Assembly (NCBI GenBank): GCA_037440025.1 | Contig: JBBIUX010000004.1 | Coordinates: 4,290 to 68,289, forward strand | Length of the DNA: 64,000 nt | Direction: 5' to 3' | DNA from: Candidatus Fraserbacteria bacterium | Lineage (GTDB): Bacteria > Bipolaricaulota > Bipolaricaulia > RBG-16-55-9 > DRXL01 | In this document: positions 1-58,032 of the stretch, piece after piece | How positions within the stretch are numbered: the first letter of the stretch is position 1 | Layout: each line of letters begins with the position of its first letter | Program-made: the position numbers and the translations under genes | Notes under the pieces: model-generated | Seen by the model: only the letters and a program-made list of their open reading frames with translations | Database searches by the model: none | Told to the model about the DNA's origin: nothing

Positions 1-60
1 CAGGAGCCCGATTTATCGGGCTTCCATCTCCTAAGACGGGTGCTTGAGCACCCGACGAAT

Positions 61-1332
61 CTACGCATACAGCCCCCTCGCTCGCGCCGCCGTCGCTACG
101 CGATCTACAGCGACCATGTACGAAGCTGTCCGTAAATCTGTCCTCTCTCGCTGAGCCATCTCCCAGACGCGCTCAAAAGCGTTCACCATAAACCGCCGCA
201 GGCGCTTGTCCACCCGTTCAGGGCTCCAGAAGTAAAAAGCCCGATCTTGCACCCATTCAAAATACGAAACCGTGACTCCGCCGGCGTTGGCTAAAATATC
301 GGGCACAACCAAAATTCCTCGGTCGTACAAGATACGGTCGGCTTCGAGAGTGATCGGACCGTTGGCCAGCTCAATGATTGTCTTGGCTCTGATCTGTGAA
401 GCATTTGCTTTGGTGATCTGGTTTTCTATCGCTGCCGGGACCAAAATGTCGCACTCCAGTTCTAGAAGTTCTTGATTGGTGATGGGCTCAGTGTTCTTAA
501 ATCTCACAACTGAACCGGTCTTGCGCTCATGCTCTTTGAGCGCCACCGGCTCGATTCCATCAGGGCTATACACACCGCCTTTGGCATCGCTGATGGCGAT
601 AATCCTCGCGCCGCCTTCAGCACAGAAGCGCGCCATGTTCGAGCCGACGTTGCCAAAACCCTGAATGGCGATCCGTGCCCCCTCGAGCTTCATGTTGAGG
701 CGTTTGAGTGTCTCCAGGAGCACAAAATAGCCGCCCCGGCCGGTCGCCGTGTCGCGTCCTTCCGACCCGCCTAACACTTTGGGCTTGCCCGTGACTAGCC
801 CTGGCATGAACATGCTGTTGTGGTGCATGCTAATAGTATCAACAAACCAGGCCATCTCGCGCTCCCCGGTGAAGACATCTGGGGCGAGAATGTCTACATC
901 AGGGCCGATAATGGGCGAGATCTCTGCCGCATACCGTCGGGTGATGCGCTCCAGCTCGCCGGTGGAAAGCTCTAACGGGTTGCAGCGCACGCCGCCCTTG
1001 GCCCCGCCAAAGGGAATCTGAGCTACAGAACATTTCCAGGTCATCAAAATGGCAAGCGCTTCGACCTCTTTTAACGTAATATCGGGGTGATAGCGAATGC
1101 CGCCCTTGGTCGGCCCCAGCACCAAATGGTGCTGCACGCGAAAGCCCTCAAAATGCTGCACGCTCCCGTCGTCCATCACCACGGGGAAGACGACGATGAG
1201 CTTGCGCTTGGGGTAGCGTAACAGAGTCCGCAAGGAGTCTTCTAACTTCAGGCGGTTTGCCGCTTCATCAAAGAAGTAATGAGCTGTCTCCAACACGCCA
1301 ATCTCGGACTTGCGTTTGAGTTCCTCGGACAT
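61..1332 (-). CDS. Glutamate dehydrogenase (Glu/Leu/Phe/Val dehydrogenase family), paralog 1. True start is probably MSEELKRK at 1332. The upstream part of the listed ORF (to 1386) is read through a palindromic repeat.
   Basis: The ORF has the GPTKGGIRYHPD and GGAKGG motifs and a Rossmann NAD(P) motif (GFGNVGS). It is about 70% identical in eye-alignment to ORF 55062..56339. The N-terminal MKGGMGEGRGGGRGEV stretch is encoded by repeat copy R1. Confidence 0.88.
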   Translation of the reverse strand: MSEELKRKSEIGVLETAHYFFDEAANRLKLEDSLRTLLRYPKRKLIVVFPVVMDDGSVQHFEGFRVQHHLVLGPTKGGIRYHPDITLKEVEALAILMTWKCSVAQIPFGGAKGGVRCNPLELSTGELERITRRYAAEISPIIGPDVDILAPDVFTGEREMAWFVDTISMHHNSMFMPGLVTGKPKVLGGSEGRDTATGRGGYFVLLETLKRLNMKLEGARIAIQGFGNVGSNMARFCAEGGARIIAISDAKGGVYSPDGIEPVALKEHERKTGSVVRFKNTEPITNQELLELECDILVPAAIENQITKANASQIRAKTIIELANGPITLEADRILYDRGILVVPDILANAGGVTVSYFEWVQDRAFYFWSPERVDKRLRRFMVNAFERVWEMAQRERTDLRTASYMVAVDRVATAARARGLYA

Positions 1333-1354
1333 GGATAAAACCTCTCCTCTGCCC

Positions 1355-1440
1355 CCTCCCCGACCCTCACCCATCCCTCCCTTCAAGGGAGAGGGTGCAG
1401 GGGGAGGGTTCCCCTTCCCTTTAGAGAAAGGGACTGAGGA
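1355..1440. repeat. Palindromic GC-rich element, copy R1, in the intergenic region between lon and gdh. Made of tandem hairpins of the CCCTCCCTT..GGGAGAGGG and CCCTTCCCTTTAGAGAAAGGGA type.
   Basis: Sequence similarity to the R5 and R7 copies on the opposite strand. Hairpin-forming inverted repeats are seen directly. Confidence 0.6.
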
Positions 1441-1441
1441 G

Positions 1442-3856
1442 TTAGGTCTTCTCTCCCTCCTCTTCTTTGGTTAAGTTTAGATTCTTCTGAATCTCGCGCA
1501 GCCGTGCTTCAACACGAGCGTAGATCGTCCCTTCCGGAAATTTTCCCTCAGGGGTTCGTTCACCTGCTTGGAGCCCTGTAAGCAATTCGAGCCCCTCTTC
1601 GACAGTCTTGACAGCGTAAATATGAAATTGGCCTCGTTTGACCGCATCAATGACCTCTGGGCGAAGCATCAGGTTATCTATATTCTGCTCAGGGATGATG
1701 ACCCCCTGCTGGCCTGTCAGCCCCTGCATTTTGCAGATCTTAAAAAATCCGTCAATCTTCTCGTTGACGCTGCCGATGGGCTGAATTTCGCCCTTCTGAT
1801 TGACCGAGCCGGTCACGGCTAAGTCTTGCTTGAGGGGGACATCGGCCAGTGCTGAGATGAGCGCGTACAGTTCCGTGCTTGAGGCCGAATCGCCGTCTAT
1901 TTTCGAGTAGCTCTGCTCAAACGTGATACTAGCCGAGAGACTGAGCGGCTGGGCTTGCGCGAATTTTTCACCGAGCCAGCCCTTCAAAATCAAGACGCCC
2001 TTGCTGTGAATTTTCCCCGACAGTTCGGCCTCGCGCTCCACGTTGAGCACACCTTCTTTGCCCGTAAACACGTTGGCTGTGATGCGCGTGGGGCGACCAA
2101 AAGAGAAATCAGGCAATTGCAGGACAGAGAGTCCGTTCACACAGCCGACGCGCTCCCCCTGGGTGTCTACGAGGATATCGCCGCGGATGATGAGCTCGTG
2201 AATCTTCTCTTCAATGAGGCTATTGCGATAGAGCTTTTCTTCGATAGCTTTTTCGATATGTTCGGCTTTGACCAGGCGTGCCCCTTCGCGCTCGACCCAG
2301 TAGGACGCTTCGCGAACGATGGTCATCAAGTCGCTGAAGCGCGCCGAAAGTTTTTTCTGATCGCCCGTCACTTCGGCGGCGTACTCGGCCAGCCGCGCCA
2401 GGGCTGCTCTGTGAAAATGCTTGAGCCCCGGGCGCTCTTTGACGCGCGCCGCCACAAACGGGCCCAGCTGCTTAATATATCTCTCGTTCCATTCCATCTC
2501 ATCATCGAAGTCAGCCTTCACCGCGAACAATTTTTGGAAATCTTCGTCCACCGCCTCTAAGAGATAGTACAGATCGGGGCTGCCGATGAGAATGACCTTC
2601 ACAGACAAGGGCACCGGTTCAGGCTTCAAGCCTTCCGTAGTGGTAAATCCCATCATCGTTGCGGGGTCTTCGATCTGGATGCGCCCGCAGCGGACGGCGA
2701 TCTTGAGCGCTTCCCAGCTGATCCAGTACTTTAATAAATTGTCGGCGTTCAGTACCAAATAGCCGCCGTTGGCCTCGTGAAGCGAGCCGGGCTTGATCAT
2801 GGTAAAGTCCGCGGTCATCACACCGAACTGCACTCTTCGTTCGATCTTGCCAAAAAGATTTGTGTACGTGGCGTTCTCTTGCACCACGACTGGCGCGCCT
2901 TTGGTCCTGCTGTGGTCTACTAGGACGTTGATCGTGTATCGTCTGAAGAGATCAATCATCCCCGTGGGCAGGGGCACCCCTTGCCCTTCACCCTCTTGGC
3001 TCTCTTTCGAAGGCTCAGAGAACTCCTTGATGTTCTGCAGAATATCAGCTTCGACGTCTTCAAGAAATTCGAGAACACGAGAATAATTGTTGTAGCGGGT
3101 CTGCAATCTCTTTATCAAAGGCTTGACGGTGTAGAGTGCAATATCTCTGTCGAGTTCACCAATTGCTCTCAAGCGTTGTTCTTCGATTTGTTCGAGCTGG
3201 CTCATGGCCTCTTGTACAATCTCTTGCAGCTCTTCACGGTGGCGCGCAATTCTCTGGCGATCTCGCTCCGGCAGGTTGGCAAACGCTTCTTCGGTGAGCG
3301 GCTTGCCGTCGAGCAACGGCGTAGCTTGAAATCCCAGCACCGAGAGCTGAAAGAGAAACCCCCGACGTCGTGCCTCTTGGTCGACGGTGCTGGAGACTTT
3401 ATTGCGCAGCTCATTGAACTGCTCGTCGATGCTTTGGCGTTTTTTTCGGTATTCTTCGCTATGGTACGCTGCCGGGATGCGCTCGCGCAGTTTCTCGATC
3501 AAGTACTCCATGTCGCCGGCCAGCTTGCGCCCCAGCCCCTGAGGCAGAAGAACATAGCGCGGGCAGTAGGGGTCATCGAAGTTATGCACATAGCACAGAT
3601 CAGACGGGGGCGGCTCTTTGAGGCTGATTTTTTTCAGAAAAGCTTGAACGATGGAGTTCTTTCCGGTGCCTGGGCTGCCGGCCACATAGATATTGTAGCG
3701 AAAATCTTTGATGCCTAAGCCCAAATCAAGCGCGCGTACAGCGCGTTCCTGACCGATGACATCGTCCAGGGGCTCGCACTCGGTCGTGGTCTCGATCTCG
3801 AAGACCTTTGGGTCACAACGGCGGCGTAGCTCCTCAGGCTGCAAACGGCGTGCCAT
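1442..3856 (-). CDS. Lon-like ATP-dependent protease: an N-terminal AAA+ domain plus a C-terminal Lon S16 proteolytic domain (COG1067/LonB-like family).
   Basis: Walker A motif VAGSPGTGKNS. C-terminal Lon_C-like region with a Ser-Lys dyad context (DGDSASSTELYALISA ... KIDGFFKICK). Length is about 800 aa. Confidence 0.8.
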   Translation of the reverse strand: MARRLQPEELRRRCDPKVFEIETTTECEPLDDVIGQERAVRALDLGLGIKDFRYNIYVAGSPGTGKNSIVQAFLKKISLKEPPPSDLCYVHNFDDPYCPRYVLLPQGLGRKLAGDMEYLIEKLRERIPAAYHSEEYRKKRQSIDEQFNELRNKVSSTVDQEARRRGFLFQLSVLGFQATPLLDGKPLTEEAFANLPERDRQRIARHREELQEIVQEAMSQLEQIEEQRLRAIGELDRDIALYTVKPLIKRLQTRYNNYSRVLEFLEDVEADILQNIKEFSEPSKESQEGEGQGVPLPTGMIDLFRRYTINVLVDHSRTKGAPVVVQENATYTNLFGKIERRVQFGVMTADFTMIKPGSLHEANGGYLVLNADNLLKYWISWEALKIAVRCGRIQIEDPATMMGFTTTEGLKPEPVPLSVKVILIGSPDLYYLLEAVDEDFQKLFAVKADFDDEMEWNERYIKQLGPFVAARVKERPGLKHFHRAALARLAEYAAEVTGDQKKLSARFSDLMTIVREASYWVEREGARLVKAEHIEKAIEEKLYRNSLIEEKIHELIIRGDILVDTQGERVGCVNGLSVLQLPDFSFGRPTRITANVFTGKEGVLNVEREAELSGKIHSKGVLILKGWLGEKFAQAQPLSLSASITFEQSYSKIDGDSASSTELYALISALADVPLKQDLAVTGSVNQKGEIQPIGSVNEKIDGFFKICKMQGLTGQQGVIIPEQNIDNLMLRPEVIDAVKRGQFHIYAVKTVEEGLELLTGLQAGERTPEGKFPEGTIYARVEARLREIQKNLNLTKEEEGEKT

Positions 3857-3944
3857 CCAGTCTCCTTCACCGTGGGATATTCAGGTTTTTCTAGAATACA
3901 CAATCCCGCTGGGAAGAGCAAGCTGGCTGAATCGGGGGCTCCCG

Positions 3945-4664
3945 CTAGAAGACGCGGATCTCGGCATCTCCCACAACGGGCACGGAGAAGCGCGGGGAGA
4001 AACTGGTCAGTTGGCCGCTCAGTTTGAATAGGCCGGCCGGTGTGCCGGGCGGCACAATCACCTCGTAGACAACAGTCAGTGTCTGTCCGGCCTGGAGCCG
4101 TTGGGCCCAGAGCCATTGCAGCTCGGCCTTTTTGAAAAGTGCTCCAGCGTTCTGGCTCTCGCGTGCTGTCCAGCCCGAGGGGGGGTCTTCATCGAGTCCT
4201 AGGCCGTTGATGGCTTTATTGATGCGCAAGTGGACGGTGACCCGGACCGTTTGCCCTGTGGTGACTTGGCCTCCTGGTGGCAGGGTGATCTGGCGTCGCG
4301 TGGTTACAGCTGATTCAGCAATCCTTACGATCTTGCTGATGGAGCCTGTCGCGCCGCGGTTATCTGTGACTCGTAAGTTAATGCGCCAATCGCCGGCACG
4401 ATCAAAGAGCCGGGTGGTCGTCGGGGTTGTCTTCACTTCATCGAAGCGGCCATCGCCGTTGAAATCCCACTCGTATTTGACGATGGAGCCGTCGGGGTCT
4501 TTTGAGCTTGAGGCGTCGAAGAGCACGGGTGTATTTGTATCGGGATTGGTTGGGGTTGTCCGAAAATCGGCGCGGGGCGAGGCGTTGCTTTGCGCTTCTG
4601 CTGGGGAAAGCGCCAGCATTCCCACGGCTGCCAGAAGTGACAGAGCTTTTACAAAGGTTCTCAT
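3945..4664 (-). CDS. Secreted PKD-domain protein with a signal peptide. Start set at MRTFVKAL, which has an AGGAGG RBS 7 nt upstream.
   Basis: Signal peptide MRTFVKALSLLAAVGMLALSPAEA. PKD signature VKYEWDFNGDGRFDE. The C-terminal domain carries the GLGLDED..W..FK..W..Y.V.VP pattern shared with neighbouring genes. Confidence 0.7.
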   Translation of the reverse strand: MRTFVKALSLLAAVGMLALSPAEAQSNASPRADFRTTPTNPDTNTPVLFDASSSKDPDGSIVKYEWDFNGDGRFDEVKTTPTTTRLFDRAGDWRINLRVTDNRGATGSISKIVRIAESAVTTRRQITLPPGGQVTTGQTVRVTVHLRINKAINGLGLDEDPPSGWTARESQNAGALFKKAELQWLWAQRLQAGQTLTVVYEVIVPPGTPAGLFKLSGQLTSFSPRFSVPVVGDAEIRVF

Positions 4665-4689
4665 CGCACAGACCTCCTTCTTCACTCAA

Positions 4690-4754
4690 GGCCCTCACCC
4701 CGGCTGTGCCACCCCTCTCCCGTCTAGACGGGAGAGGGGTTGGGGGTGAGGGCC
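4690..4754. repeat. Palindromic element copy R2, intergenic. Outer stem GGCCCTCACCC/GGGTGAGGGCC, inner stem CCCCTCTCCCGTC/GACGGGAGAGGGG.
   Basis: Perfect nested inverted repeats read directly from the sequence. Confidence 0.8.
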
Positions 4755-4758
4755 GGTT

Positions 4759-6648
4759 TTACGGCAGCGGCCCGAAGACCGATGCTCCCGTGAGCCAATA
4801 GGCGACCAACGTCTGCAGAGTTTTTAGGTCAATCTTGCCGAAATCCACTCCGCCAGCTTGTTTGCTGGTCACGGATTTGTCTGCCAACCAGAAGAAAGAG
4901 ACAGCAACCTGAATTTGATCAAAACTGATAGTGTTCGTATCGAGCCACAGGTTCACTCTGGGATTGGCGGCATCGCTGACGTCCATGCGGGCGAAGACCA
5001 CGGGCCACGGCAGCTTAGTATTAATAACTTTGATCTCCGTCTCTCCCGTGATGGCCATCTCAAAATTGGGCGATGCACTGCTGATATTGCCACTGAGTTT
5101 GATCACTTGGGGCCCCATATTATCAGGGAGGATCAATTCGTATTCGATGGTGCGCACCGTGCCGGCCTCCAGGGCTTCTAAGAAGACCCACAGGGCTTCT
5201 TTGATTTCGCCGGCCTCTTTAGGCTCCCGCGGGATCCCGCTGTCACCAGCGACGGCCTTGAACTGTAACCCCCTGGGGAAACGCTCCATGACGACCAGGC
5301 CGTTCACACGGTCTATAGTACGAATAGTCAGCGTCACCTTGACGCGCTCCCCAGCGATGGTCTCATCATTGGGCAGGTTGGTGTCAATCGTGCGCGTCGC
5401 GATGGCCCGGGGGGTGAAGACCCGCACGGACTTCGTTGCGCTCGCCTTCTCGCCGTCCGTGTCGGTGACGGTGAGAGTTACAGTGTAGGTCCCATCAGCG
5501 CTGTAGCGATGGATCGGGCTCTGTTCGGCCGAGCGCGCCCCGTCGCCAAAATCCCACTCCCAGGAAACGATTCCTACGTCGTCGGTCGAACGATCTATAA
5601 ACGTGACAGGAGTATTAGCCGCCGGATCGGCAGGCAAGATATCGAAATTGGCCGTCGGCGGACGGTTGCGGTCACGCGTGACCAATGGAATCGGAGCGAT
5701 CCCCGGCGTGACCAACCGACCGCGCGAGTCCAGATAACTGAAAAGAGGCTTCAGTGAAGCCGTTCCCGTTTGTGAGCCGCCGACGGTAAAGCTGGCCTCC
5801 CAGACGTCGCCGGCGAGCAGGCTCTCTAGTTCCCAGACGATGGTCGTCGAACCATCAGGGTTTTTCGTCACGCGGTTGGGGGCATTGAACGTGGCAACCC
5901 CATAATTAAGAAGAGCGGGCAACGAGAGAGTGATCTTGATCTGGCGTGCCACGGTCTTCTTTCCCAAGGCTTTGGCGATCTCTTGAGAGACGGTGTCATC
6001 GAATTTTTCAAAGAACTGCCCTTGAGTGAGCCGGGCCAGCTCGCGCAGAAGAGTTTTATCCGGGTTGCGCCCGATGGCAACAGTGAAAATCACGACACCG
6101 CTCTCAGCGGAGCGTTGGGCCTGCGCAAGCGGCGTGCGCCCGATGTTGTAACGTCCATCGCTGACCAGCACCATAGCCCAGGACGCTTCTTCACGACCAT
6201 TCAAAATCAGGGTGTCGAGGGCTTTGCCCAACCCTTCGCCGACGGCCGTCTTCCCTATGGGGCGGAGTAGCTTCAGCCCTTGGCGCACGGCCTCATGGTC
6301 GAACGTCAAGGGCACGTCCACACGGGCATCGGTGCTGAACGAGACCAGCCCGACACGATCTTGCGGGGAGAGGGCCTCAACGATGGCTGAGCCGATCTTT
6401 TGCATCTCTGGGATATTGACGGTCGCTGAACGATCAATCACGAGAAAGAGATCTGTCGGGGCGCGCTCACCTTCCGGCCCGGAAGAGAGACGCAACGTGA
6501 GCGTGGCTTCTTGGTTGACAAAGATTGCCGGTGGAGAGATGTTCACAGTGAGCTGCACGGTAGGTGAAACTACTTGAGAATGCGCTGTCAGCCATCCCAG
6601 ACAGATCAAGCTCGCTGTGAGGGTGCTCAGGCGTTTCAATCTGGTCAT
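4759..6648 (-). CDS. Secreted vWA-domain plus PKD-domain protein with a dockerin-like C-terminal module. Start at MTRLKR (GGAGG RBS). The longer listed ORF reads into repeat R3.
   Basis: Signal peptide present. vWA/MIDAS-like LFLVIDRSATV..VGLVSFSTD..LVSDGRYN. PKD signature SWEWDFGDGARS...YTVTLTVTDTDGE. C-terminal tandem segments DTNTISFDQIQVAVSFFWL and VDFGKIDLKTLQTLVAYWL. Confidence 0.75.
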   Translation of the reverse strand: MTRLKRLSTLTASLICLGWLTAHSQVVSPTVQLTVNISPPAIFVNQEATLTLRLSSGPEGERAPTDLFLVIDRSATVNIPEMQKIGSAIVEALSPQDRVGLVSFSTDARVDVPLTFDHEAVRQGLKLLRPIGKTAVGEGLGKALDTLILNGREEASWAMVLVSDGRYNIGRTPLAQAQRSAESGVVIFTVAIGRNPDKTLLRELARLTQGQFFEKFDDTVSQEIAKALGKKTVARQIKITLSLPALLNYGVATFNAPNRVTKNPDGSTTIVWELESLLAGDVWEASFTVGGSQTGTASLKPLFSYLDSRGRLVTPGIAPIPLVTRDRNRPPTANFDILPADPAANTPVTFIDRSTDDVGIVSWEWDFGDGARSAEQSPIHRYSADGTYTVTLTVTDTDGEKASATKSVRVFTPRAIATRTIDTNLPNDETIAGERVKVTLTIRTIDRVNGLVVMERFPRGLQFKAVAGDSGIPREPKEAGEIKEALWVFLEALEAGTVRTIEYELILPDNMGPQVIKLSGNISSASPNFEMAITGETEIKVINTKLPWPVVFARMDVSDAANPRVNLWLDTNTISFDQIQVAVSFFWLADKSVTSKQAGGVDFGKIDLKTLQTLVAYWLTGASVFGPLP

Positions 6649-6662
6649 ATCGTTCCTCCCTT

Positions 6663-6783
6663 GGCCCTCACCCCGCCGCACCCCTCTCCCGTCTTTACGG
6701 ACGGGAGAGGGGCCGGGGCGAAGCGTTTTGGTGCAGCATTTTTTCAGAAAGCGGTCGCACCAAAACGCTTCGGGGTGAGGGCC
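6663..6783. repeat. Palindromic element copy R3, a compound nested copy of about 120 bp with an extra internal hairpin GAAGCGTTTTGGTGC...GCACCAAAACGCTTC.
   Basis: Outer stem GGCCCTCACCCCG/CGGGGTGAGGGCC and two internal perfect stems, read directly. Confidence 0.8.
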
Positions 6784-6795
6784 TTCTCTCCCGTT

Positions 6796-8931
6796 CTACC
6801 GCGTCGCCGCGGGCAACGGCTGATCTACGGGTGTATCCGTAAGCCAATACGAGATGAGTATTTGCAACATTCTAAAATCTATAGTCTTCCCGCAGGTGCC
6901 GACAACCTCTTCGTCTTCTAACCAGAGGGCGATGGCCGTCTGGATCTGCGCAAAACTGATCTTGTTTGAGAGCGCGACGTCAATGGTGTTCTGCTCAACA
7001 TTGAGGTGCGAGATGGCCACCGGAATGTCGAGGCACTCCACGACGTTCAATAATTGATCTTTGCCAACCTCGATCTGGAAGTTGGGCGAGAAGGACTCGA
7101 TCAAGCCTTGAATCACATACTGACTGATGATCTCGTCCATGGGAACGACGACTTCATAGATGACGCTGCGGCGAGAACCGGCGGGAATCTTCTCCGTGAA
7201 GATCCACGTGTTCGCCAATTGCTTGAAGGCGGCGCTGCTGCCTTCTAAAGGCTTCACTTCCCAGCGTTCGGGCAATTTTTCCGTCAGGGCCAAGCCAAAG
7301 AGATCTTTTTCGGCATGCACTTCGACCTTCACACGGAAGATATTCCCGCCTGGGGTGCGCAAATACACTTGGAAGAACGGGAGCGGCGCTAAGATCGAGC
7401 GCAGGGCTGAACCGCTGACCGAGGTATCTTCTTCGATGGTCCGATCTACGGGCACGTTCGCCAAGTGATGGGCGACTAGTTGTTTCAGCGATTGCAGGTC
7501 GAGTGGGGCCTCGCACGTCCCCGGCACCGCAGTATCCTCTTGCCAGAAGGCGATTCCACGTTGCATTTGGTCAAACGTGACATCCTCCGGCAAGCGCAGA
7601 TTGACAGTATCCGTTGCCGTATCCAAATGTGCCAACGCGACGAGAGGGGGCAAACAGGTCACGATGGAAATTCGTGAGTAGGATTCGTTGGTCTCTCCCA
7701 AGACGGGAATCTCTTTGATGTCCGGCACGGTGCTCGACACACGCCCGACGATGTCAAAATCTTGAGGCAGCGGGCCGCCGATCAATTGATCGGTCTTAGG
7801 GATGGTCACATCGTAGACGATGCGGCGGGTCTCGCCGCTGCGCACGATCGTGGGAAAGACCCATTGGGTTTGGGCGACTTTGAACGTTGCGCCGGCGCTG
7901 TCAATGGGGGTGACCTCCCAGTTCGCCGGTAGGTCTTCGTCCAAGCCAAGGCCGCTCATGGAAGTTCTCACAGTAATCGTCACGGTCACTCTAAAGGTCG
8001 TCCCTAGGGCAGCATGAGTCGTCGTGACCACGCGCCGGGCGAAAGCCACTTCTTTTTCGACGGTGATCGTTTTCGTGATCTGCGCGATGGCGCCCTTATC
8101 GTCGGTGACGCGCAGGGTGACTTTCACTTCGCCGATCTGGGTGAACGTGTGCTGCACTGTTGGTTTATCCGTAGAGATTTCGAAAATGTTGTCTGCATTA
8201 AAATCCCATTCGTACTTGACGATCTTGCCGTCGGCGACCGTGCTGGCACGAGCATCAAAAGTCACCGGCACGTTGATGCTCACCACTGATGGGGAGAACG
8301 TAAAGTCTGCTTTCGGGGGCGCTCGGCGGAAGGCGCTCAGCACTAAGGGCTCGACGGGGCTGGGCAGCTGAAATCTCTCGGGATTGACGGGATTACCGCT
8401 GAGCACCTGCCAGCCGTCAATGCCTCGGATAAATGTCGGGGTTATGGTGATCTCGAACTCATCGGGCAGCCCACTGATGACGACTCCGTCGGCGCGCTCG
8501 GCCAGCCAGCGCCAGGTCATCGTGGCTGTCGGCGGGGTGAACTCATACGTATCTGCCGGGTCGTCGCGCAAGGTAATTTGCGCTGTCGGGGGGAGACCGT
8601 CGAAGCGCAAGGTCGCCTCGCCGCCAGCAGGGTTGCCCGGCTTACTTAAGATAATAACTAAGCTCAGATCACGGGTGTTTTGATCTCGATAGAGAAAGAC
8701 CAGCGCCTGGTTGTCTATTTCTAAGCCGGTGTTCGGTTGATCGTTGGCGAAGCGATAGAACTCCACGGCCGATCCCGGTTGGGTCAGCGGGGTGATCGGC
8801 GTAGAAAACGCTCCTTGACGCGCGAGGAAGAAAGATGGCGTTTGCTCAGAAACTACCCCTTGGCCTGATCCTGTTACAGCGATCAATGCCAGCACCAAGA
8901 GCCCAGAGAGAACTTGCCGAATGACACGCAT
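6796..8931 (-). CDS. Secreted 711-aa PKD-domain protein with two 'GLGLDED' domains and two dockerin-like modules, one internal and one C-terminal.
   Basis: Signal peptide MRVIRQVLSGLLVLALIAVTGSG. PKD signature KYEWDFNADNIF...VKVTLRVTDDKGA. Repeated GLGLDEDLPANWEV.. and GLALTEKLPERWEV.. domains. Module copies ..ISFAQIQTAIALWL..KTIDFRMLQILISYWL and VTFDQMQRGIAFW..LDLQSLKQLVAHHL. Confidence 0.7.
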   Translation of the reverse strand: MRVIRQVLSGLLVLALIAVTGSGQGVVSEQTPSFFLARQGAFSTPITPLTQPGSAVEFYRFANDQPNTGLEIDNQALVFLYRDQNTRDLSLVIILSKPGNPAGGEATLRFDGLPPTAQITLRDDPADTYEFTPPTATMTWRWLAERADGVVISGLPDEFEITITPTFIRGIDGWQVLSGNPVNPERFQLPSPVEPLVLSAFRRAPPKADFTFSPSVVSINVPVTFDARASTVADGKIVKYEWDFNADNIFEISTDKPTVQHTFTQIGEVKVTLRVTDDKGAIAQITKTITVEKEVAFARRVVTTTHAALGTTFRVTVTITVRTSMSGLGLDEDLPANWEVTPIDSAGATFKVAQTQWVFPTIVRSGETRRIVYDVTIPKTDQLIGGPLPQDFDIVGRVSSTVPDIKEIPVLGETNESYSRISIVTCLPPLVALAHLDTATDTVNLRLPEDVTFDQMQRGIAFWQEDTAVPGTCEAPLDLQSLKQLVAHHLANVPVDRTIEEDTSVSGSALRSILAPLPFFQVYLRTPGGNIFRVKVEVHAEKDLFGLALTEKLPERWEVKPLEGSSAAFKQLANTWIFTEKIPAGSRRSVIYEVVVPMDEIISQYVIQGLIESFSPNFQIEVGKDQLLNVVECLDIPVAISHLNVEQNTIDVALSNKISFAQIQTAIALWLEDEEVVGTCGKTIDFRMLQILISYWLTDTPVDQPLPAATR

Positions 8932-9542
8932 CGCGGCCTCCTTCGTAACTTCTGGTCTCAGTATAGCGGACTATTTCCCCTGAGACAGTGATTCAAATTA
9001 CCCACTGCGCGCACTTCCCCTTAGCTTGAGCATAGCACAGCTTTGGGCCAAAGGCAAGCGGGCGTGATAGCCATTACAGTCTAAGAAAATTTAGCGACGC
9101 GTTCGAGGCCTGGGGCCAAAATCTGACTGGGCGTTTGTCTGGGGAATGGGTGCGCTCTGTCCGCTTTTATTTGACAAGCCTTGGACGAGGAGACGCTCTT
9201 CTCGATGTTGGAATGGGTTGGTGGTCCGTCTCTAGTCTCCCCTGGCAGACAGTCGCGTGAGGGAGCACCGCCATTTGAGTACATGGGAGGGCTACAAGCC
9301 ATTGATTCTGGACGGACCGGCTGGGCTGGGCTCGATCTTTCTCCGGGAGAGTATATTGCTTTGTGTTTTGTGCCCGATCCGGCGTCTGGGAAACCGCATA
9401 TCGAGCTGGGCATGGTTGCAAGCTTTCGGGTGAGGTGACCCTAAGAAGCGTTGAAGGGCAATGCTGGAACTGAAGGTTCGGCCTGTGATACCAGAGCGGT
9501 GGTCCGATCTCGAAGAACTCTTCGGAGAGCGTGGGGCGTGAG

Positions 9543-27307: not shown

Positions 27308-28720
27308 ATGATAGCGTTCTTTCGTGAAGTTGGCAGTGATCTCTACAAATTCTTCACATCTATCACTGTAGCTATTGTCTTGATCTCACTCCTTGCGCTG
27401 CTTTCTATTGTGGGCACGCTCATCCCTCAAGAGACGTTCACCCGCGAAGTGGACTATATCGCCCGCTACGGCATCGCAGGCTACACTATACTCAAAAAAC
27501 TCCAGTTGACGAATATTTTCGGGTCATGGTATTTTCTCTTTCTTATGGCACTCTTCACGCTCAATCTGTCGGTGTGCACCTATAGAAGACTGACGGCCTC
27601 CTGGCGCTACTGGAAGCTCCCCATGAGCTTTATCGCACCCGAGGGGCTGCGAAGATTTGAGCACTCTAGCACTCTTTCAGGGGCCATTGCTGCCGATGCT
27701 CCCGTGCAGATTCAAAGATTTTTGCAGCGGCGTGGCTACCGTGTTCGTGAGCAAAACGGTCAGATTCTCGCCGAGAAATGGCGCTGGGAACGCTTCGGCA
27801 TTGATCTCTTTCATATCAGTTTGCTCGTAGTGATCTTCGGCGGCCTGCTCACCATGCTCTTGGGGTATCGCACATTCGAGATCGCCCATCAGGGCAGTGT
27901 GATCACACTCCCCGGAGCAGACTTTACCGTGCGCGTTAATAGATTCTGGAGCGAAAACTATCAACACTCTGAGCGTGTCATGGACTGGCACAGCGAGCTC
28001 GCCGTCATCGAAGGCGACCGCGAAGTTCTTACGAAGACTATTGAAGTGAACGCCCCCTTGCGCTACAAGGGGTATAATATCTATCAGTCGGCCTTTGGAA
28101 CTGACTGGCAGGGGGCGGCCCGCGTCACGCTCCAGCTCTCTCGCACCGACGGCACCGAGCTGGGCGAGTTTGTGAGCGCCGTCAACGACGGCTTTGAAAT
28201 CCCTGAAGAACAGCTCTTTGTCAAGGTTGGAGCATTTCTCCCTGATTTTGCGCTCACAGAGAATCTGATCGCGTATAGCCGGACACAACGTTTAGAGAAC
28301 CCCGCGGCCTTCGTAGAGATCTATGACGCCCACGGTCTTCGAGTCATGCGCACCTGGACTTTCTCCCGCTCGGAGATGCAACAGTTTTGGGAGACGACCA
28401 TGAGCCGCATCAGTGGAGAAACACCCTACAGAATCAGGCTCGTGGGTATGACTGCCCCGGAATTCACAGGCTTGCAGATCACCAAAGACCCGGGACGGCC
28501 GATAGTCTATTGGGGCTTTCTCTTTGTCATTGTGGGATTGTCAGTGCACATGTACTTCAAGCACAAGCAGATCTGGGTCCATATCTCTGAGAGCGAGATC
28601 GTCATTGCCGGGATGGTGCGCAACAATTTAAGATCGTTCACACACGAGTTTCGTCGTCTGACGGAGGAGATCGAGCGACTTGGGGTCGTGGCACATCCTG
28701 AGCCGGTGCTTATCACTTGA
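27308..28720 (+). CDS. Cytochrome c biogenesis protein CcsB/ResB (system II).
   Basis: ResB-like topology: N-terminal transmembrane helices, a large soluble domain and a C-terminal transmembrane helix. It lies between the resA-like and ccsA-like genes. Confidence 0.8.
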   Translation: MIAFFREVGSDLYKFFTSITVAIVLISLLALLSIVGTLIPQETFTREVDYIARYGIAGYTILKKLQLTNIFGSWYFLFLMALFTLNLSVCTYRRLTASWRYWKLPMSFIAPEGLRRFEHSSTLSGAIAADAPVQIQRFLQRRGYRVREQNGQILAEKWRWERFGIDLFHISLLVVIFGGLLTMLLGYRTFEIAHQGSVITLPGADFTVRVNRFWSENYQHSERVMDWHSELAVIEGDREVLTKTIEVNAPLRYKGYNIYQSAFGTDWQGAARVTLQLSRTDGTELGEFVSAVNDGFEIPEEQLFVKVGAFLPDFALTENLIAYSRTQRLENPAAFVEIYDAHGLRVMRTWTFSRSEMQQFWETTMSRISGETPYRIRLVGMTAPEFTGLQITKDPGRPIVYWGFLFVIVGLSVHMYFKHKQIWVHISESEIVIAGMVRNNLRSFTHEFRRLTEEIERLGVVAHPEPVLIT

Positions 28721-29862
28721 TTCTCAAGGAGGATTCCGTGAGGTACACCAGCGTTTTGTTCTTTTATCTCAGCACGGTGAGCTACTTTGTCACGTTTGTG
28801 CTGTATCTGCTCCACGTCGTGCTGAAGAGCTCCCCTCACCCCGCGCCCTCTCCCTTGAGGGGAGAGAGATGGGGTGAGAGGACGTTGAGCATCGTCGCGC
28901 CGAGCTCTTCAGGGGGGTTATCGAATATTCATTGGGGAATCTGGGCGACTCGCGCCCTGATAGTCAGTCTCTTGATCTCCAGTGCCGGTGTGATCGCCCG
29001 CGCCATCGAACTGGGCAATGCATCCCAATGGGTCAAGATGTTCTTCTTGCCCCTTTCGACAACCTATGAGACCTTGACTTTCTTCTCGTGGTTGATCCCG
29101 GTAGTGTATTTCTTGATGGAGCGAAAGTTTGGGATCAAGCAAGTGGGTGTCTTCGTCACTGGAGCGGCGTTTGTGATGCTGGCAATAGCCGCATCACCGA
29201 GTTTTGCGCCGAGCGCTCCCACAGGCGTTCCCGCGAGCTTACAAAGCTACTGGCTGACAACGCACGTGCTCTTTATGATCACTGGGATCGCGTTCTTTAC
29301 AAGTGGTTTCGGAGCGACGCTGCTCTATCTGTGGCGCCGCTATGGGAAGACTATGTTTCTCTTGTTCGGGGCGCTGCTCGCCGTCATCGCGGGTATCATC
29401 TTGTTCGTGATCCCGCTGTTTGCTACGTTGCAAACGCCCAAGATGCTTGCCGCTGCAGCACTCTTCATAACGCTCTGTACGGGCTTCAGTTGGCTGTTGC
29501 TTTTTGTGCATCGCGAAAGCCAGGCTGTCGCTTGGCAGAGCTTAGAAAACGTCGAAGAGATGATCTATCGTTCTATCGCTATTGGGTTCCCCTTCTATGC
29601 TATTGGGGGATTGGTCTTTGGGGGCATCTGGGCCGAGCAGGCTTGGAGTCGCTACTGGGGCTGGGACCCCAAGGAGACAGCGATGCTCGTTACGGCGTTG
29701 GTCTATGCTGTCTATCTACATGCCCGACTGACCTGGGGAGCGCGTGATCCCGGCTGGCGCGGTGGCTTGGTGGCTTGGCTGTCAGTCTTCGGGTATCTCG
29801 CCGTGCTGTATGCCTGGATCGGGATTAATTACTTTGTAGCCAGCTTGCACAGTTTCGTTTGA
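28717..29862 (+). CDS. Cytochrome c biogenesis protein CcsA/ResC (heme handling). It carries an in-frame palindromic-element insertion near the N-terminus.
   Basis: WWD/Trp-rich heme-handling domain WGWDPKETAMLVTALVYAVYLHARL...W..F. There is a 4-bp overlap with ccsB. Repeat copy R4 encodes ...SSPHPAPSPLRGERWGER... Confidence 0.85.
   Translation: MILKEDSVRYTSVLFFYLSTVSYFVTFVLYLLHVVLKSSPHPAPSPLRGERWGERTLSIVAPSSSGGLSNIHWGIWATRALIVSLLISSAGVIARAIELGNASQWVKMFFLPLSTTYETLTFFSWLIPVVYFLMERKFGIKQVGVFVTGAAFVMLAIAASPSFAPSAPTGVPASLQSYWLTTHVLFMITGIAFFTSGFGATLLYLWRRYGKTMFLLFGALLAVIAGIILFVIPLFATLQTPKMLAAAALFITLCTGFSWLLLFVHRESQAVAWQSLENVEEMIYRSIAIGFPFYAIGGLVFGGIWAEQAWSRYWGWDPKETAMLVTALVYAVYLHARLTWGARDPGWRGGLVAWLSVFGYLAVLYAWIGINYFVASLHSFV
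28832..28881. repeat. Palindromic element copy R4 (short), inside the ccsA-like CDS and in frame.
   Basis: CCCCTCACCCCGCGCCCTCTCCC-TTGA-GGGGAGAGAGATGGGGTGAGAGG inverted repeats. Confidence 0.7.
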
Positions 29863-34547: not shown

Positions 34548-34961
34548 AGGTTCCGCGAGCGAACAGCTCTTGAATTGGGCTTATCTGGATTATACGGAGC
34601 TGGGACTAGAAAGGCAAACGCTGAGAACCAGTGATGCGGCCCCAGCTGCACTCAGCACAAGAGCGGCCACATCACTCGCCCGTTGATTTTCTCCATAGAA
34701 ACAAAGGGCTTTCCGAAGGGGGAGCGCTCATGCTTTAATTGGCGTCCTATCAGTAATTTTGCCGCCCTTGTCGCGAAAGATCTTTTTTATCTTTCCGGCG
34801 ACCTCGTTCGCATGCACCTAGCAACCCGAGCTGATTTTCTGTCAAACAGAACCGCGAAAAGTGATTGAGCAGCGTCTCTCTTCCGTCCTAGCAATCGCAA
34901 CCCCGATCTTGTAAAATACCCCGCTGTACATCTCTAAATTTTTTACCGAGGAGGTCGAACT

Positions 34962-40766: not shown

Positions 40767-40866
40767 AAATGTCTTCCCTTGGCTATAAGCCAGATCGTCC
40801 TTGTCCGAATTATAGCAAGCCCATCTTCGGTAAGCTAGTACTCGAGCCAGGCGAAGGTTGTAGGAT

Positions 40867-40942
40867 GTCATTCTGAGCGTAGCGAAGAATCTCTCCTTTT
40901 GTGGGACAGGAGATTCTTCGTCGCTTCGCTCCTCAGAATGAC
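40867..40942. other. Long imperfect hairpin (~30 bp stem) in the divergent metK-uppP intergenic region, within the predicted metK 5' leader.
   Basis: GTCATTCTGAGCGTAGCGAAGAATCTC...GAGATTCTTCGTCGCTTCGCTCCTCAGAATGAC, read directly. Confidence 0.5.
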
Positions 40943-40987
40943 ACCTTCTGCCGTTGCATTACTGATTGATGTTGATTAAGATGAACG

Positions 40988-41776: not shown

Positions 41777-41868
41777 TTTTCCGAGTTTGTGCTTGACGAT
41801 TTCGCACAAGTGCAGTATCATTCCCCCGGCAAATTCTATTACTATACTTTATGGAGGTGGCCTGCGCT

Positions 41869-45146
<3,278 letters not shown>

Positions 45147-45150
<4 letters not shown>

Positions 45151-57493: not shown

Positions 57494-57540
57494 GCCCCTC
57501 AGGTTTGATTCCCCCATCGCTTTTCTTTTATAGTGAGATC

Positions 57541-57774: not shown

Positions 57775-57789
57775 AAATCCTTGGGTGCC

Positions 57790-57894: not shown

Positions 57895-58032
57895 CCCAGG
57901 GAGGTTTTCTACAGAGCCGTTCTACCGACCACTGCTTCCGTATCATTTGGTAGCGGTTGTCAAGCGACTGGATGGAGACGGATTCATTATCACAAGCTAT
58001 GTGACAGATAGGATCAAGGAAGGAGAGCAGAT

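Follow-up and report, generated by a model that had tools for sequence, protein, structure and literature searches.

BoxC, PIT and TMECO repeats have been described from E. coli and other bacteria (Bachellier, 1990s; Hoyne & Maher 2000; Holder et al. 2015, PMC4666352), and the TMECO type follows a three-block pattern, 5'-CCCTCNCCC N3-6 GGGNGAGGG N3 GGGNGAGGG-3' (Holder et al. 2015, PMC4666352). In E. coli, TMECO loci are hypervariable and have no transposase genes near them, the PIT/BoxC elements that were tested possessed neither promoter nor terminator activity, and in-vivo footprinting did not support stable triplex formation (PMC4666352). Known since the 1990s, these repeats still have no established function or spreading mechanism. 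Rickettsia palindromic elements (RPEs) are about 100-150 bp long, limited to the genus Rickettsia, and found in intergenic DNA as well as in frame in many unrelated housekeeping genes (Ogata et al. 2000, 2002; PMC10969869). Such in-frame 'coding palindromes' have so far been treated as a Rickettsia curiosity. Rickettsia genomes are A+T-rich. REP/BIME elements and REPINs are mobilised by RAYTs (IS200/IS605-like Y1 transposases) and consist of an imperfect palindrome of 20-40 nt that opens, on its 5' side, with a conserved GT(A/G)G, and the RAYT gene is typically flanked by REP repeats. The small dispersed repeats (SDR) of Nostoc and other cyanobacteria, an account of which Elhai et al. reportedly gave in 2008, are very small, self-inserting, nested composites that gather at hot spots. 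MITEs able to lie in ORFs include Correia/NEMIS, ERIC, Nezha and the Anabaena MITEs (PMC10969869, PMC2229807).

In this study, a 64-kb stretch of DNA (hereafter the window) was analysed, for which the original prediction had listed eight copies of a MITE/REP-like mobile palindrome family sharing the same building blocks. The palindromic repeat family is genuine, and judged by their sequence its building blocks are not new but are those of the E. coli BoxC/PIT/TMECO repeats. The best reading, to which we give a probability of roughly 0.68, is a non-autonomous, turnover-prone family of G/C-rich nested palindromes of the BoxC/PIT/TMECO kind in a closed-hairpin form; by analogy, the in-frame residence of its copies resembles that of RPEs.

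A scan of the window for GGGNGAGGG, GGGAAGGGG, GGGGAGGGG and GGGAGAGG gave 46 matches against 6.4 expected, 40 of which lie in seven clusters (1353-1420, 4692-4752, 6665-6781, 28833-28855, 42521-42583, 43958-44020 and 51058-51168). BoxC/PIT/TMECO-type blocks occur in six of these clusters, and CCCCTTCCCT on its own was barely enriched (9 matches against 4.35 expected). Shared blocks could be upheld for seven of the eight listed copies by these motif clusters, while the eighth (60515-60565) is a relic in which the scan found zero family motifs. The predicted common outer stem was borne out: GGCCCTCACCCC/GGGGTGAGGGCC forms exact pairs at 4690/4743, 6663/6772 and 43956/44011 and a pair with one mismatch at 51056/51159, and at no more than one mismatch it has 10 matches in the window against 0.37 expected, a number reached in 0 of 100 shuffles. 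So was the inner hairpin CCCCTCTCCCGTC/GACGGGAGAGGGG, which is exact at 4712/4727 and 6681/6700. Between copies, 42547-42591 and 51118-51162 are 96% identical, as are 42520-42542 and 51094-51116, and 4708-4754 and 43976-44022 are 79% identical. The elements measure 50-120 bp with a G+C content of 63-81%, and two module types were distinguished, both of which combine and nest: a Y-shaped unit with the GGCCCTCACCCC/GGGGTGAGGGCC outer stem, a small GCCnnnGGC hairpin and a long CCCCTCTCCCGT...ACGGGAGAGGGG hairpin, and a double-hairpin 'A2' unit. No Rfam matches to the elements were found.

When each copy was folded, five were far below shuffled sequences (z -3.7 to -12.3), while three were not. 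The RNA fold of the 4690 copy reaches -58.2 kcal/mol (z -7.6; DNA fold -33.9, z -8.6), that of the 6663 copy -93.7 kcal/mol (z -12.3) and that of the 51056 copy -84 kcal/mol (z -5.2), and the copies at 43956 and 28832 have z values of -5.1 and -3.7; those at 1355 (z -1.5), 42500 (z -1.9) and 60508 (z -1.5) fold no better than shuffles. Among 42 Bipolaricaulota copies, 97% of cells were paired, and both members of the pair had changed in 57 cells; shuffles gave 18, and 0 of 500 attained the observed number. These two-sided changes were concentrated in the variable pairs 14-23, 38-46 and 39-45; the invariance of the outer stem is uninformative here because the search pattern fixed it. Arm-to-arm correction of palindromes, rather than selection on structure, could also be the source of this covariation.

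Only three of the eight copies are intergenic, and all three occupy very short spacers between co-directional genes, with a stop codon 4-12 nt upstream and a ribosome-binding site 4-10 nt downstream. They are as follows.

1353-1440, intergenic: degenerate composite copy with CCCTCACCC, CCCTCCC/GGGAGAGGG, GGGGGAGGG and CCCCTTCCCT
4690-4754, intergenic: canonical Y-shaped element with a 12-bp outer stem, a small GGCTGTGCC hairpin and a 13-bp CCCCTCTCCCGTC/GACGGGAGAGGGG hairpin
6663-6783, intergenic: compound element with the outer stem, the CCCCTCTCCCGTC hairpin and an unrelated nested 16-bp hairpin (6719-6772)

The first lies between a Lon gene (1442-3856, minus strand) and a GDH gene (61-1343, minus strand). 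The second lies 4 nt past the stop of a VWA/PKD gene (4759-6648, minus strand), with the ribosome-binding site of the next PKD gene 10 nt further on. The third, whose compound make-up had been correctly predicted, stands 12 nt past the stop of a PKD gene (6796-8931, minus strand) and adjoins the ribosome-binding site of the VWA/PKD gene. GC-rich hairpins past stop codons at these three places might suggest intrinsic terminators that lack a U-tract ('I-shaped' terminators). The original prediction had already preferred a mobile family to ordinary terminators. We consider terminators of this kind highly improbable: no T-tract follows any copy, the element hairpins were not among the terminators reported by a scan of positions 1-9000, the next co-directional gene has its ribosome-binding site within 4-10 nt, four or five copies reside within essential ORFs, and BoxC/PIT elements lack terminator activity in E. 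coli (PMC4666352).

It could also be argued that the elements act primarily in mRNA, where their hairpins would shield the preceding cistrons against 3'-5' decay, limit read-through or adjust the translation of genes next to them, the intragenic copies being by-products. REP hairpins in E. coli operons, which protect upstream cistrons, offer an analogy, and the position of all three intergenic copies in short co-directional spacers, the extreme stability of the RNA hairpins and the covarying stem positions agree with it. Against it, the relative L121 has no element at one of these operon junctions and its genes are intact, both orientations are found, more than half of the copies are in coding sequence, where ribosomes would melt hairpins, and PIT/BoxC elements were without promoter or terminator activity in E. 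coli (PMC4666352). A role in mRNA as the explanation of the family is therefore regarded as unlikely.

The original prediction treated the copies as an extragenic REP/MITE type. This did not hold, since four solid copies and one relic, of the eight, were found in frame within intact housekeeping genes, namely those for IleRS (two copies), PorA, CcsA and LptF/G (the relic). The genes and their elements are listed below; the peptides are predicted.

28717-29862, plus strand: CcsA host gene, cytochrome c biogenesis protein, downstream of ResB
28832-28881: short copy in CcsA, CCCCTCACCCC..CCCTCTCCC ttg GGGGAGAGAG..GGGGTGAGAGG, in frame, encoding SSPHPAPSPLRGERWGER
41851-45150, plus strand: isoleucyl-tRNA synthetase (IleRS) host gene, ORF intact, 1099 aa, two elements
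42503-42600, plus strand: 'A2' double-hairpin module at IleRS site 1, CCCCTTCCCTgAAGGGAAGGGG + CCCCTCCCTCTTTAGGGGAGGGG + GGGGGAGAGGTC, in frame, encoding DLTTLPPSLKGRGDSPPSLGEGLGERSVGREN
43956-44022, plus strand: Y-shaped element at IleRS site 2, in frame, encoding ALTPPFGHPAPAAPGEGRGVRA
49911-51308, plus strand: PorA host gene, pyruvate/2-oxoacid:ferredoxin oxidoreductase alpha subunit, likely start 50013
51056-51170, plus strand: composite element in PorA with the outer stem, a second-level stem GACCCCTCTCCC/GGGGGAGAGGTC and two A2 hairpins
59161-62730, plus strand: LptF/LptG-family permease host gene, 1189 aa, fused to a long C-terminal extension
60515-60565, plus strand: decayed relic or short substitute, in frame in the LptF/G-fusion gene, encoding IPPSLSDKGRAEGRKGEAW

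The identity of CcsA is given by Pfam Cytochrom_C_asm over aa 114-375 of the ORF, and its insert SSPHPAPSPLRGERWGER corresponds to about aa 38-56. In IleRS, whose likely start is M7 at 41869, the copy listed at 42519 has its true start near 42503 and lacks the left outer arm. The insert residues of site 1 have no counterpart in the solved IleRS 8c8v, and the AlphaFold model (pLDDT 53) is too poor to place them; site 2 coincides with a 13-residue gap against PDB 8c8v and is modelled as a low-pLDDT loop between confident helices in that otherwise poor model. The peptide predicted across the insert junction reads ...FDPALTPPFGHPAPAAPGEGRGVR..., and in the IleRS alignment the same two loops hold different inserts of like flavour in different lineages. 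The PorA element is in frame near the C-terminus and would encode ALTPDPSPGPNPTPFPKGKGLPSLFRGGVGGEVRGVRA, and the alignment of PorA to the solved 9bt4 ends at the insertion. The relic is counted as family only because the L133 orthologue holds an intact A2 element at the exact position.

No stop codon interrupts the host frame in any of the intragenic copies examined. This, together with the frame itself and lengths in multiples of three, suggests that the inserts are translated, and intragenic copies would add short Pro/Gly-rich loops to their host proteins. We hold it to be very improbable that they are instead cut out of the RNA or skipped by the ribosome, in the manner of the GC-rich 'byp' elements found in Magnusiomyces mitochondria. 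Very stable hairpins within coding sequence would agree with it, and translation has been deduced from sequence. However, length differences of +30, +45 and +105 nt and stop-free copies, a pattern that recurs in the window and in more than 10 host genes of other genomes, would be needless if the inserts were bypassed or spliced, and neither intron-like features nor Rfam matches were seen.

Comparison of orthologous loci, using MAGs or metagenome contigs throughout, confirmed that the family comes and goes between relatives: four copies are present or absent across relatives of 89-97% nucleotide identity, and presence/absence or replacement was recorded at all seven sites compared (1353, 4690, 6663, 42503, 43956, 51056 and 60515). 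The element at 42503-42600 is missing in L001 and also in L002, where it is the sole alignment break in 5.6 kb of 96.7% nucleotide identity. The element at 43956-44022 has a diverged orthologous copy in L002 and is missing in L001, which bears a different 22-nt perfect palindrome at the site, and 51056-51170 is missing in L001 (net +105 nt in the window). Net lengths against L001 are +45, +30 and +105 nt, all multiples of three, and over 20 kb of synteny with L001 all three intragenic blastn breaks fall at elements. As to the intergenic sites, 1353-1440 is hypervariable, with a longer version in L121 and a minimal one in L122; at 4690, L121 has a degenerate version and L122 a different palindrome; 6663-6783 is missing in L121, which has just a short spacer (~30 nt) there, and is found in L122, where GGTGC/GCACC is replaced by GATGC/GCATC, a compensatory change.

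Assembly or binning errors, such as chimeric joins at low-complexity sequence, were considered as a source of these differences, given that short-read contigs break in palindromes, that L120 ends at window positions 4710 and 6730 and that several MAG contigs end at elements. Copy counts are indeed unreliable because assemblies break inside these repeats. As an explanation of the family, however, an artefact has a negligible chance of being right: the independent assemblies L002 and L122 contain orthologous copies, each with substitutions private to it, L120 matches the window at 100% identity over 4710-6730, and the reading frame is unbroken through every intragenic copy.

Outside the window, the exact outer stem was found at no fewer than 117 loci across phyla, including Bipolaricaulota, Chloroflexota, Cyanobacteria, Acidobacteriota and Alphaproteobacteria, and near-identical 65-72-nt units occur in many genes of many genomes. 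Elsewhere, in-frame copies have as hosts MutL and PolA linkers, amidohydrolases, CsaB, GcvT, FtsH, an ABC ATPase, a GT2 glycosyltransferase, an OmpR-type regulator, an AMP-ligase and Tgt, the FtsH, AMP-ligase and Tgt hosts being recognised by eye from translations. A Pfam scan of ten hosts placed domains on either side of the element or across it; the MutL and PolA copies fall between Pfam domains and several others within Pfam domain envelopes. Relative to the host ORF, seven copies are in the same and four in the opposite orientation, and this absence of bias suits an element at the level of DNA better than it would a directional RNA signal.

A mobile family of MITE or REP type had been predicted, and dispersal, modularity and turnover between relatives agree with this, while the hallmarks of both classes fail. 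For MITEs, there were no target-site duplications: 87 of 125 copies lack any flanking direct repeat, and the flanking-repeat lengths equal those of shuffled partners save for five copies with at least 4 nt (0.6 expected). Likewise, no related transposase or other mobilising enzyme was seen in the window and the short flanks inspected, and no transposase-like Pfam domains were present in the window ORFs scanned or in those listed for syntenic loci. As to REPs, a GTAG-type 5' tag is lacking, and genes as well as extragenic positions hold copies. 'Empty' sites in relatives mostly hold other sequence, often another palindrome, so that with no target-site duplication and no clean empty site, in-situ turnover and true transposition are inseparable.

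These observations bring in a further explanation, which Holder et al. proposed for TMECO (PMC4666352), namely that the sites are not mobile elements but hot spots of non-B-DNA instability (cruciform, intrastrand triplex or G-quadruplex) that stall replication and are rewritten in situ by error-prone repair and template switching, like sequences arising or spreading by gene conversion. Different palindromes at the same sites in close relatives, the lack of target-site duplications and of a nearby transposase, the hypervariable E. coli TMECO loci without nearby transposase genes (PMC4666352), and right arms that are canonical four-G-tract runs (e.g. GGGAGAGGGGTTGGGGGTGAGGG) all speak for it. 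However, 45-nt blocks are 96% identical in unrelated genes of one genome, and the near-identical units in many genes and genomes need copying between loci, beyond local rewriting. The block order (C-rich, G-rich, G-rich) permits a triplex, but with the complementary fourth block present the balance should tip towards a plain hairpin, which in the full palindrome should outcompete triplex and G-quadruplex; nor did in-vivo footprinting in E. coli support a stable triplex (PMC4666352). We hold instability as the whole explanation to be somewhat unlikely.

Under the preferred reading of a turnover-prone palindrome family, copies would be gained, replaced and lost at limited hot spots on short evolutionary time scales, most likely via single-stranded hairpin or cruciform DNA. 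The agent may be a putative enzyme that acts in trans; otherwise, template-switching during replication or gene conversion from copy to copy may be responsible. New copies would survive only where harm is small, between cistrons in short spacers and, in proteins, at surface loops or the linkers that join domains, and those in proteins would have to use a stop-free frame and add a multiple of three bases. Once transcribed, intragenic copies would give rise by translation to peptides about 15-40 aa long that are rich in Pro/Gly/Ser/Arg/Glu and belong to the ALTP...GVRA or xPSP/GPHP...GEG types. We infer selective near-neutrality, the mobilising mechanism and any mRNA effects of intercistronic copies. 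A wider proposal is tentative, possible rather than probable: BoxC/triplex-motif palindromes may be cross-phylum, still-active hairpin elements that, through a putative mobilising activity, land by preference in palindromes already there and in tolerant loops and linkers of proteins, and Rickettsia-like coding palindromes may be general.

The genomes considered here show the BoxC/PIT/TMECO blocks in a fuller closed-hairpin form with very recent gains and losses, and offer material on how such repeats move. Coding palindromes are here found in essential genes (IleRS, PorA, PolA, MutL, FtsH) of unrelated, free-living, GC-richer phyla, and repeat insertion would thus be a broader route to new protein loops. 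If the proposal is true, deep-branching phyla (Bipolaricaulota, Chloroflexota, Fraserbacteria) would have in them a general and continuing supply of new loops and linkers, and the IleRS insertion, polymorphic at 96.7% identity, would make the mobilising activity traceable experimentally or metagenomically. In practice, the repeats fragment short-read assemblies, yield spurious P/G-rich 'hypothetical proteins' and cause unexplained indels in marker-gene alignments, e.g. of IleRS, used for candidate-phyla phylogenomics.

Compared with known systems, the elements share with REPs and REPINs the form of short GC-rich hairpin repeats without target-site duplications that are common in intercistronic spacers, and movement via single-stranded hairpin DNA is plausible for both. 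Unlike them, the elements are not confined to extragenic positions; they begin with GGCCCTCA (GGCC) rather than a GTAG/GTGG 5' tag, their flanks are not conserved, and no Y1_Tnp-like domain or RAYT gene was found in the scanned ORFs of the 64-kb window and syntenic loci. Like MITEs, they are small and non-autonomous with inverted-repeat ends, the 12-bp outer stem being formally an inverted terminal repeat, and in-frame intragenic MITE copies are occasionally known; unlike MITEs, they lack target-site duplications, and the unit forms a hairpin throughout instead of a core framed by inverted terminal repeats. Neither the window nor the syntenic loci showed a parent insertion sequence whose ends match theirs. 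Nesting composites at hot spots also recall the Nostoc SDR, although the sequences probably differ.

By analogy, the elements are counterparts of RPEs and not RPE members. Both are in-frame palindromic repeats in unrelated genes with the host ORF intact, and both include several families and degenerate copies. RPEs are translated as extra peptide segments where the fold permits, and the present inserts may likewise be so in loops and linkers. The elements differ in being 50-120 bp long, 63-81% G+C and cross-phylum, and in that they nest, swap modules and recur at the same loop in different lineages; sequence homology is very unlikely because of the Bipolaricaulota host and the high G+C content.

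With BoxC/PIT/TMECO, the common blocks are CCCTCTCCC - loop - GGGAGAGGG - short spacer - GGGTGAGGG(C). Both groups are multi-copy and dispersed, without nearby transposase, target-site duplication or terminator features, and the loci of both differ between close relatives. A blastn search against E. coli genomes gave no match, which for a short, low-complexity query is weak evidence. Loops in the present family are longer than the published pattern permits: no copy in the window fits the strict TMECO loop lengths, and relaxed loops (2-10 and 1-8 nt) gave one match, at 4713-4752 within the 4690-4754 element, against 0 in shuffles. Extra module types, nesting and different phyla further set the present elements apart, as do, above all, the many copies in frame within genes, whereas BoxC/TMECO repeats were analysed as intergenic (PMC4666352). 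In form, the family differs in that a fourth block, GGCCCTCACCCC, pairs here with the third and closes the unit into a nested, Y-shaped hairpin.

The outer-stem 12-mer GGCCCTCACCCC and its complement were found 10 times in the window at no more than one mismatch, against 0.37 expected, and four inverted pairs of outer stems were identified (4690/4743, 6663/6772, 43956/44011 and 51056/51159). An inner hairpin, CCCCTCTCCCGTC/GACGGGAGAGGGG, was exact both at 4712/4727 and at 6681/6700. Direct-repeat analysis gave 96% identity both between 42547-42591 and 51118-51162 and between 42520-42542 and 51094-51116, and 79% between 4708-4754 and 43976-44022. A window scan for four short G-rich blocks returned 46 matches against 6.4 expected, 40 of which fell inside seven clusters, and these clusters are seven of the eight copies originally proposed; the eighth, 60515-60565, contained none of the four blocks. 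Taken singly, CCCCTTCCCT was not significantly enriched in the window, and only paired, clustered occurrences were counted. The outer-stem excess, the inverted pairs, the direct repeats and the block clustering confirm that a palindrome family exists. Seven of its copies are solid, and 60515-60565, which does not stand as a solid copy, is accepted as a relic because the orthologous gene in metagenome locus L133 carries an intact A2 element (a double-hairpin module) at exactly the same position.

Palindromic elements of the family in the window
1353-1440: intergenic
4690-4754: intergenic
6663-6783: intergenic, compound
28832-28881: within CcsA (host assigned by Pfam)
42503-42600: within IleRS (site 1), encodes DLTTLPPSLKGRGDSPPSLGEGLGERSVGREN
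43956-44022: within IleRS (site 2), encodes ALTPPFGHPAPAAPGEGRGVRA
51056-51170: within the alpha subunit of 2-oxoacid:ferredoxin oxidoreductase (PorA), in frame
60515-60565: relic within the LptF/G-fusion gene (host assigned by Pfam)
Junction-spanning peptides predicted from the ORFs: FDPALTPPFGHPAPAAPGEGR (IleRS) and ALTPDPSPGPNPTPFPK (PorA)

When each copy was folded with RNA parameters, five were far more stable than shuffled sequences (z -3.7 to -12.3), while the copies at 1355, 42500 and 60508 showed no clear gain, so that strong stability held for five copies and not for three; folding with DNA parameters agreed. No T-tract followed any copy examined, by sequence inspection or terminator scan, in agreement with the original note, and terminator identity was rejected on the terminator scan and gene context. 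Across the whole window, Rfam at gathering thresholds gave no matches and ARAGORN detected neither tRNA nor tmRNA.

The three intergenic copies lie where very short spacers separate minus-strand genes of the same direction (GDH, Lon, PKD, VWA/PKD and PKD), 4-12 nt past a stop codon and 4-10 nt ahead of the next ribosome-binding site. All remaining copies lie within long intact ORFs, are stop-free and keep the host frame. Because ORFs make up about 91% of the window, intergenic DNA is still over-represented among the copies, which is the pattern expected if most intragenic insertions have been purged, and the intragenic share is far above that of classical extragenic repeats. The window contains two glutamate dehydrogenase paralogues, one on the minus strand (61-1343) and one on the plus strand (55062-56339); in relatives, the GDH genes correspond to the latter, with about 74% DNA identity. 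The LptF/G-fusion gene (59161-62730) encodes an LptF/LptG permease domain (aa 7-366) followed by about 800 further residues that match no Pfam family, an architecture unusual for Lpt components of the phylum and also kept in the L133 orthologue.

By alignment, neither IleRS insert has a counterpart in the solved IleRS structure 8c8v, and the alignment of PorA to the solved structure 9bt4 ends at the insert. An AlphaFold2 model of IleRS built from a 16-sequence alignment was poor (mean pLDDT 53) and usable for site 2 alone, which appeared as a low-confidence loop flanked by confident helices. A search of 1.84 billion representative proteins with the 44-aa PorA insert gave a single match, probably owing to composition filtering. 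This match (P0241; 5909 aa, 108.8 bits, with no discrete matched stretch) is presumably a very large protein of repetitive or low-complexity sequence.

The window IleRS is 78% identical to the protein of Ca. Acetothermum autotrophicum, and its named matches belong to Candidatus Bipolaricaulota (Acetothermia/OP1); by this protein the window falls in that phylum. In the protein alignment the site-1 insert is absent from the closest homologues (96, 91 and 90% identity), and the same loop in more distant lineages carries other inserts, likewise Pro/Gly/Glu-rich. The site-2 insert is common only to the window and its closest homologue, with differing inserts in other lineages, including an A2-type one in the homologue P0006. 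At the DNA level, genome locus L001 (GCA_900175145.1, about 91% identity) is syntenic with the window over 20 kb, and the within-gene alignment breaks exactly at three elements, with net changes of +45, +30 and +105 nt. A second relative, L002, is 96.7% identical across 5.6 kb with its sole break at 42492-42604, and the site-1 insertion is therefore very recent. The compound element at 6663-6783 is present in L122 (about 92% identity), and L121 (about 89% identity) has merely a short spacer of about 30 nt there. At the 4690 site the window, L121 and L122 have three differing contents, that of L122 being a palindrome of another family, and at the 1353-1440 site the length is unequal in all three. 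Comparison of related genomes for presence or absence, as proposed originally, thus revealed elements gained, lost or replaced across 3-11% divergence. L001 also carries about 2.4 kb of additional genes (620-3070) between tatC and thrS, namely an APH-family kinase, MazG and a DUF6883/DUF4926 pair, which the window counterpart (34661-34835) lacks.

Beyond the window, the pattern GGCCCTCACCCC N20-50 GGGGTGAGGGCC, searched in one genome per species, was found at no fewer than 117 loci, against well under one by chance. Among the matches listed were many Bipolaricaulota MAGs (often with several copies each), many Chloroflexota, a cyanobacterium, Armatimonadota, Acidobacteriota, Gemmatimonadota, Fraserbacteria, a Pseudomonas, and many Sphingomonadales and other Alphaproteobacteria, the alphaproteobacterial interior being different. 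Only one of the viral contigs scanned matched the outer stem, so a phage vector is not indicated. The 4690 copy had no blastn match in 5,426 E. coli genomes, a result that is uninformative because the query is short and of low complexity. Three contigs of MAG CAYYOG01 (L006, L054 and L115), labelled 'uncultured Thermotogae bacterium', carry typical Bipolaricaulota Y-type elements (outer stem, small GCCnnnGGC hairpin and long hairpin); the IleRS region of this MAG is 75-76% identical to the window at the DNA level, and the label is probably wrong.

The Bipolaricaulota unit, among the matches listed, is strongly conserved, asymmetric and found in both orientations, in the order outer stem, GCCnnnGGC hairpin, CCCCTCTCCCGT-tip-ACGGGAGAGGGG hairpin, 2-3 nt, outer stem. 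In 42 oriented copies from these matches 97% of cells were paired, and two-sided changes numbered 57 cells against 18 in shuffles, with none of 500 shuffles reaching 57; these changes cluster in the small hairpin and at the long hairpin's tip, and the outer stem is invariant because the search pattern fixed it. Eleven JGI metagenome loci carry the A2 module, as does one genome locus (L105).

In-frame insertion is a property of the family and is not confined to the window. Among the 49 Bipolaricaulota Y-type copies in the matches listed, 11 sit in a frame that stays free of stops for at least 100 codons to either side, and a cut-off of at least 50 codons gives 18. Their hosts include MutL, with the element in the linker between DNA_mis_repair and MutL_C, DNA polymerase I (PolA), where the element separates the 5'-3' exonuclease domain from the 3'-5' one, two amidohydrolases and a polysaccharide pyruvyl transferase; elsewhere, Y-type hosts are an AMP-dependent ligase (Oscillochloris) and Tgt (a Fraserbacteria MAG). 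Seven of 11 A2 copies lie in genes, encoding an OmpR-type regulator, an FAD oxidoreductase, a GT2 glycosyltransferase, an ABC ATPase, GcvT, FtsH and the LptF/G orthologue. Ten hosts were assigned by Pfam, and FtsH, the AMP-ligase and Tgt from translations by eye. The in-frame fraction outside Bipolaricaulota is an upper bound, since certain long ORFs in Chloroflexota of high GC content are plainly spurious. Peptides are encoded in two of three frames (ALTP...GVRA and xPSP/GPHP...GEG), the third being blocked by the TGA in GGGG-TGA-GGG, and orientation relative to the host gene is mixed (7:4).

Several other palindromes were encountered, some of them nested with members of the family.

The nested 6719-6772 hairpin and the second palindrome family
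6719-6772 (window): perfect 16-bp hairpin CGAAGCGTTTTGGTGC...GCACCAAAACGCTTCG, inside 6663-6783, after the inner hairpin and before the right outer arm
L001 10620-10692: second nested-palindrome family, CCAGGCTTCGCCTGGAC...GTCCAGACGAAGTCTGG, whose inner hairpin varies; in frame, in the loop at IleRS site 1
L122 11880-11965: second family; intergenic, at the 4690 site
L065 ~7470-7550: second family
L067 ~2900-2980: second family
L085 ~1440-1530: second family, nested within a GGCCCTCACCCC...GGGGTGAGGGCC stem

The 6719-6772 hairpin is unrelated to the family and is retained in L122 with a compensatory change in its stem (GGTGC/GCACC to GATGC/GCATC); direct-repeat analysis gave its region weak similarity to 3606-3640. 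The second family, with outer stem GTCCAGACGAAG, was seen in relatives and is absent from the window. A third palindrome, also nested but unrelated (57760-57923; about 160 nt), has a closing stem GGCTCTGTAGAAAtCCT/AGGtTTTCTACAGAGCC around several inner hairpins, folds as RNA at -108 kcal/mol (z -11.5) and begins at the stop of a short ORF (57542-57773) within a 770-nt gap; a permissive Rfam scan of 57500-58100 returned zero matches. Because the A2 elements of metagenome loci L125, L127 and L129 are bordered by very similar arms (ctcagcagatgcaagcgtgctgaagcacgctg...), it is probably another repeat family able to host nested A2. One more palindromic element, 40862-40945 (TGTCATTCTGAGCGTAGCGAAGAATCTC...GAGATTCTTCGTCGCTTCGCTCCTCAGAATGACA), lies between metK and uppP and is absent from the syntenic L001; its arm appears to resemble a repeat occurring in many phyla.

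The proposed check for target-site duplications gave no general signal in the flanks of 125 outer-stem elements (loci L003-L119 and the window). Direct repeats of 4-6 nt flanked 5 of the 125, against about 0.6 expected from shuffled partners, an excess that may be partly due to duplicated contigs such as L050. Immediately beyond the stem a C often stands on the left and a G on the right, lengthening the palindrome; no conserved flanking bases were found around the elements, and no transposase in the window. A Logan contig (L120) identical (100%) to window 4710-6730 ends mid-element at both elements flanking VWA/PKD, other short MAG contigs (L050, L078, L101 and L106 among them) end inside or adjoining palindromes, and several MAG contigs of 0.7-1.6 kb contain little beyond one terminal element. 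As short-read contigs end at palindromes, the repeats break up assemblies, and copy numbers counted from MAGs are too low.

The observations demonstrate a multi-copy family with hairpin potential and covariation, hot-spot turnover at 3-11% divergence and palindrome-in-palindrome nesting. We propose that the active form would be a single-stranded hairpin or cruciform, and that new copies could be generated by a putative trans-acting enzyme or, at stalled forks, by template switching and gene conversion, with palindromes already present as the preferred targets. Selection would then spare copies only in spacers and in tolerant loops or linkers, and intragenic survivors would be those with a stop-free frame and a length that is a multiple of three. 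On mRNA, the intercistronic copies may have an incidental effect resembling that of REP hairpins; close relatives without them argue against a required function.

The element blocks CCCTCTCCC, GGGAGAGGG and GGGTGAGGG(C) are shared with BoxC of E. coli, a repeat subsequently renamed PIT and then TMECO (PMC4666352). BoxC is catalogued with a length of 56 bp and about 32 copies. The pattern of Holder et al., CCCTCNCCC N3-6 GGGNGAGGG N3 GGGNGAGGG, has 3,610 copies in 262 proteobacterial genomes, and G/C-rich motifs are abundant in cyanobacteria and Thermus (PMC4666352). An isolated TMECO strand forms a triplex in vitro, a stable triplex in vivo being unsupported; TMECO-type motifs had neither promoter nor terminator activity, and their loci had no mobility genes nearby and were associated with raised local variability (PMC4666352). 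No window element matched the strict TMECO pattern and one copy matched a relaxed version; compared with BoxC/TMECO, the window elements have an added fourth block that pairs with the third. The original REP/MITE-like reading is partly upheld and overlooks both the in-frame coding location and the BoxC/TMECO kinship. In our literature search no paper was found on such repeats in Bipolaricaulota, and the characteristic element-encoded peptide strings appeared in none. Rickettsia palindromic elements (RPE) are the classic in-frame palindromes, and a 2024 review treats them as the extreme case, with similar events elsewhere as speculation only; the window elements are likewise palindromes in frame inside genes, which extends to other phyla a phenomenon considered Rickettsia-specific. 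The recent insertion polymorphisms offer a handle for tracing a repeat (BoxC/TMECO) unexplained for decades. Nothing here is categorically new: the elements combine BoxC/TMECO-type blocks, a closed, modular, nested architecture and RPE-like behaviour in candidate and deep-branching phyla.
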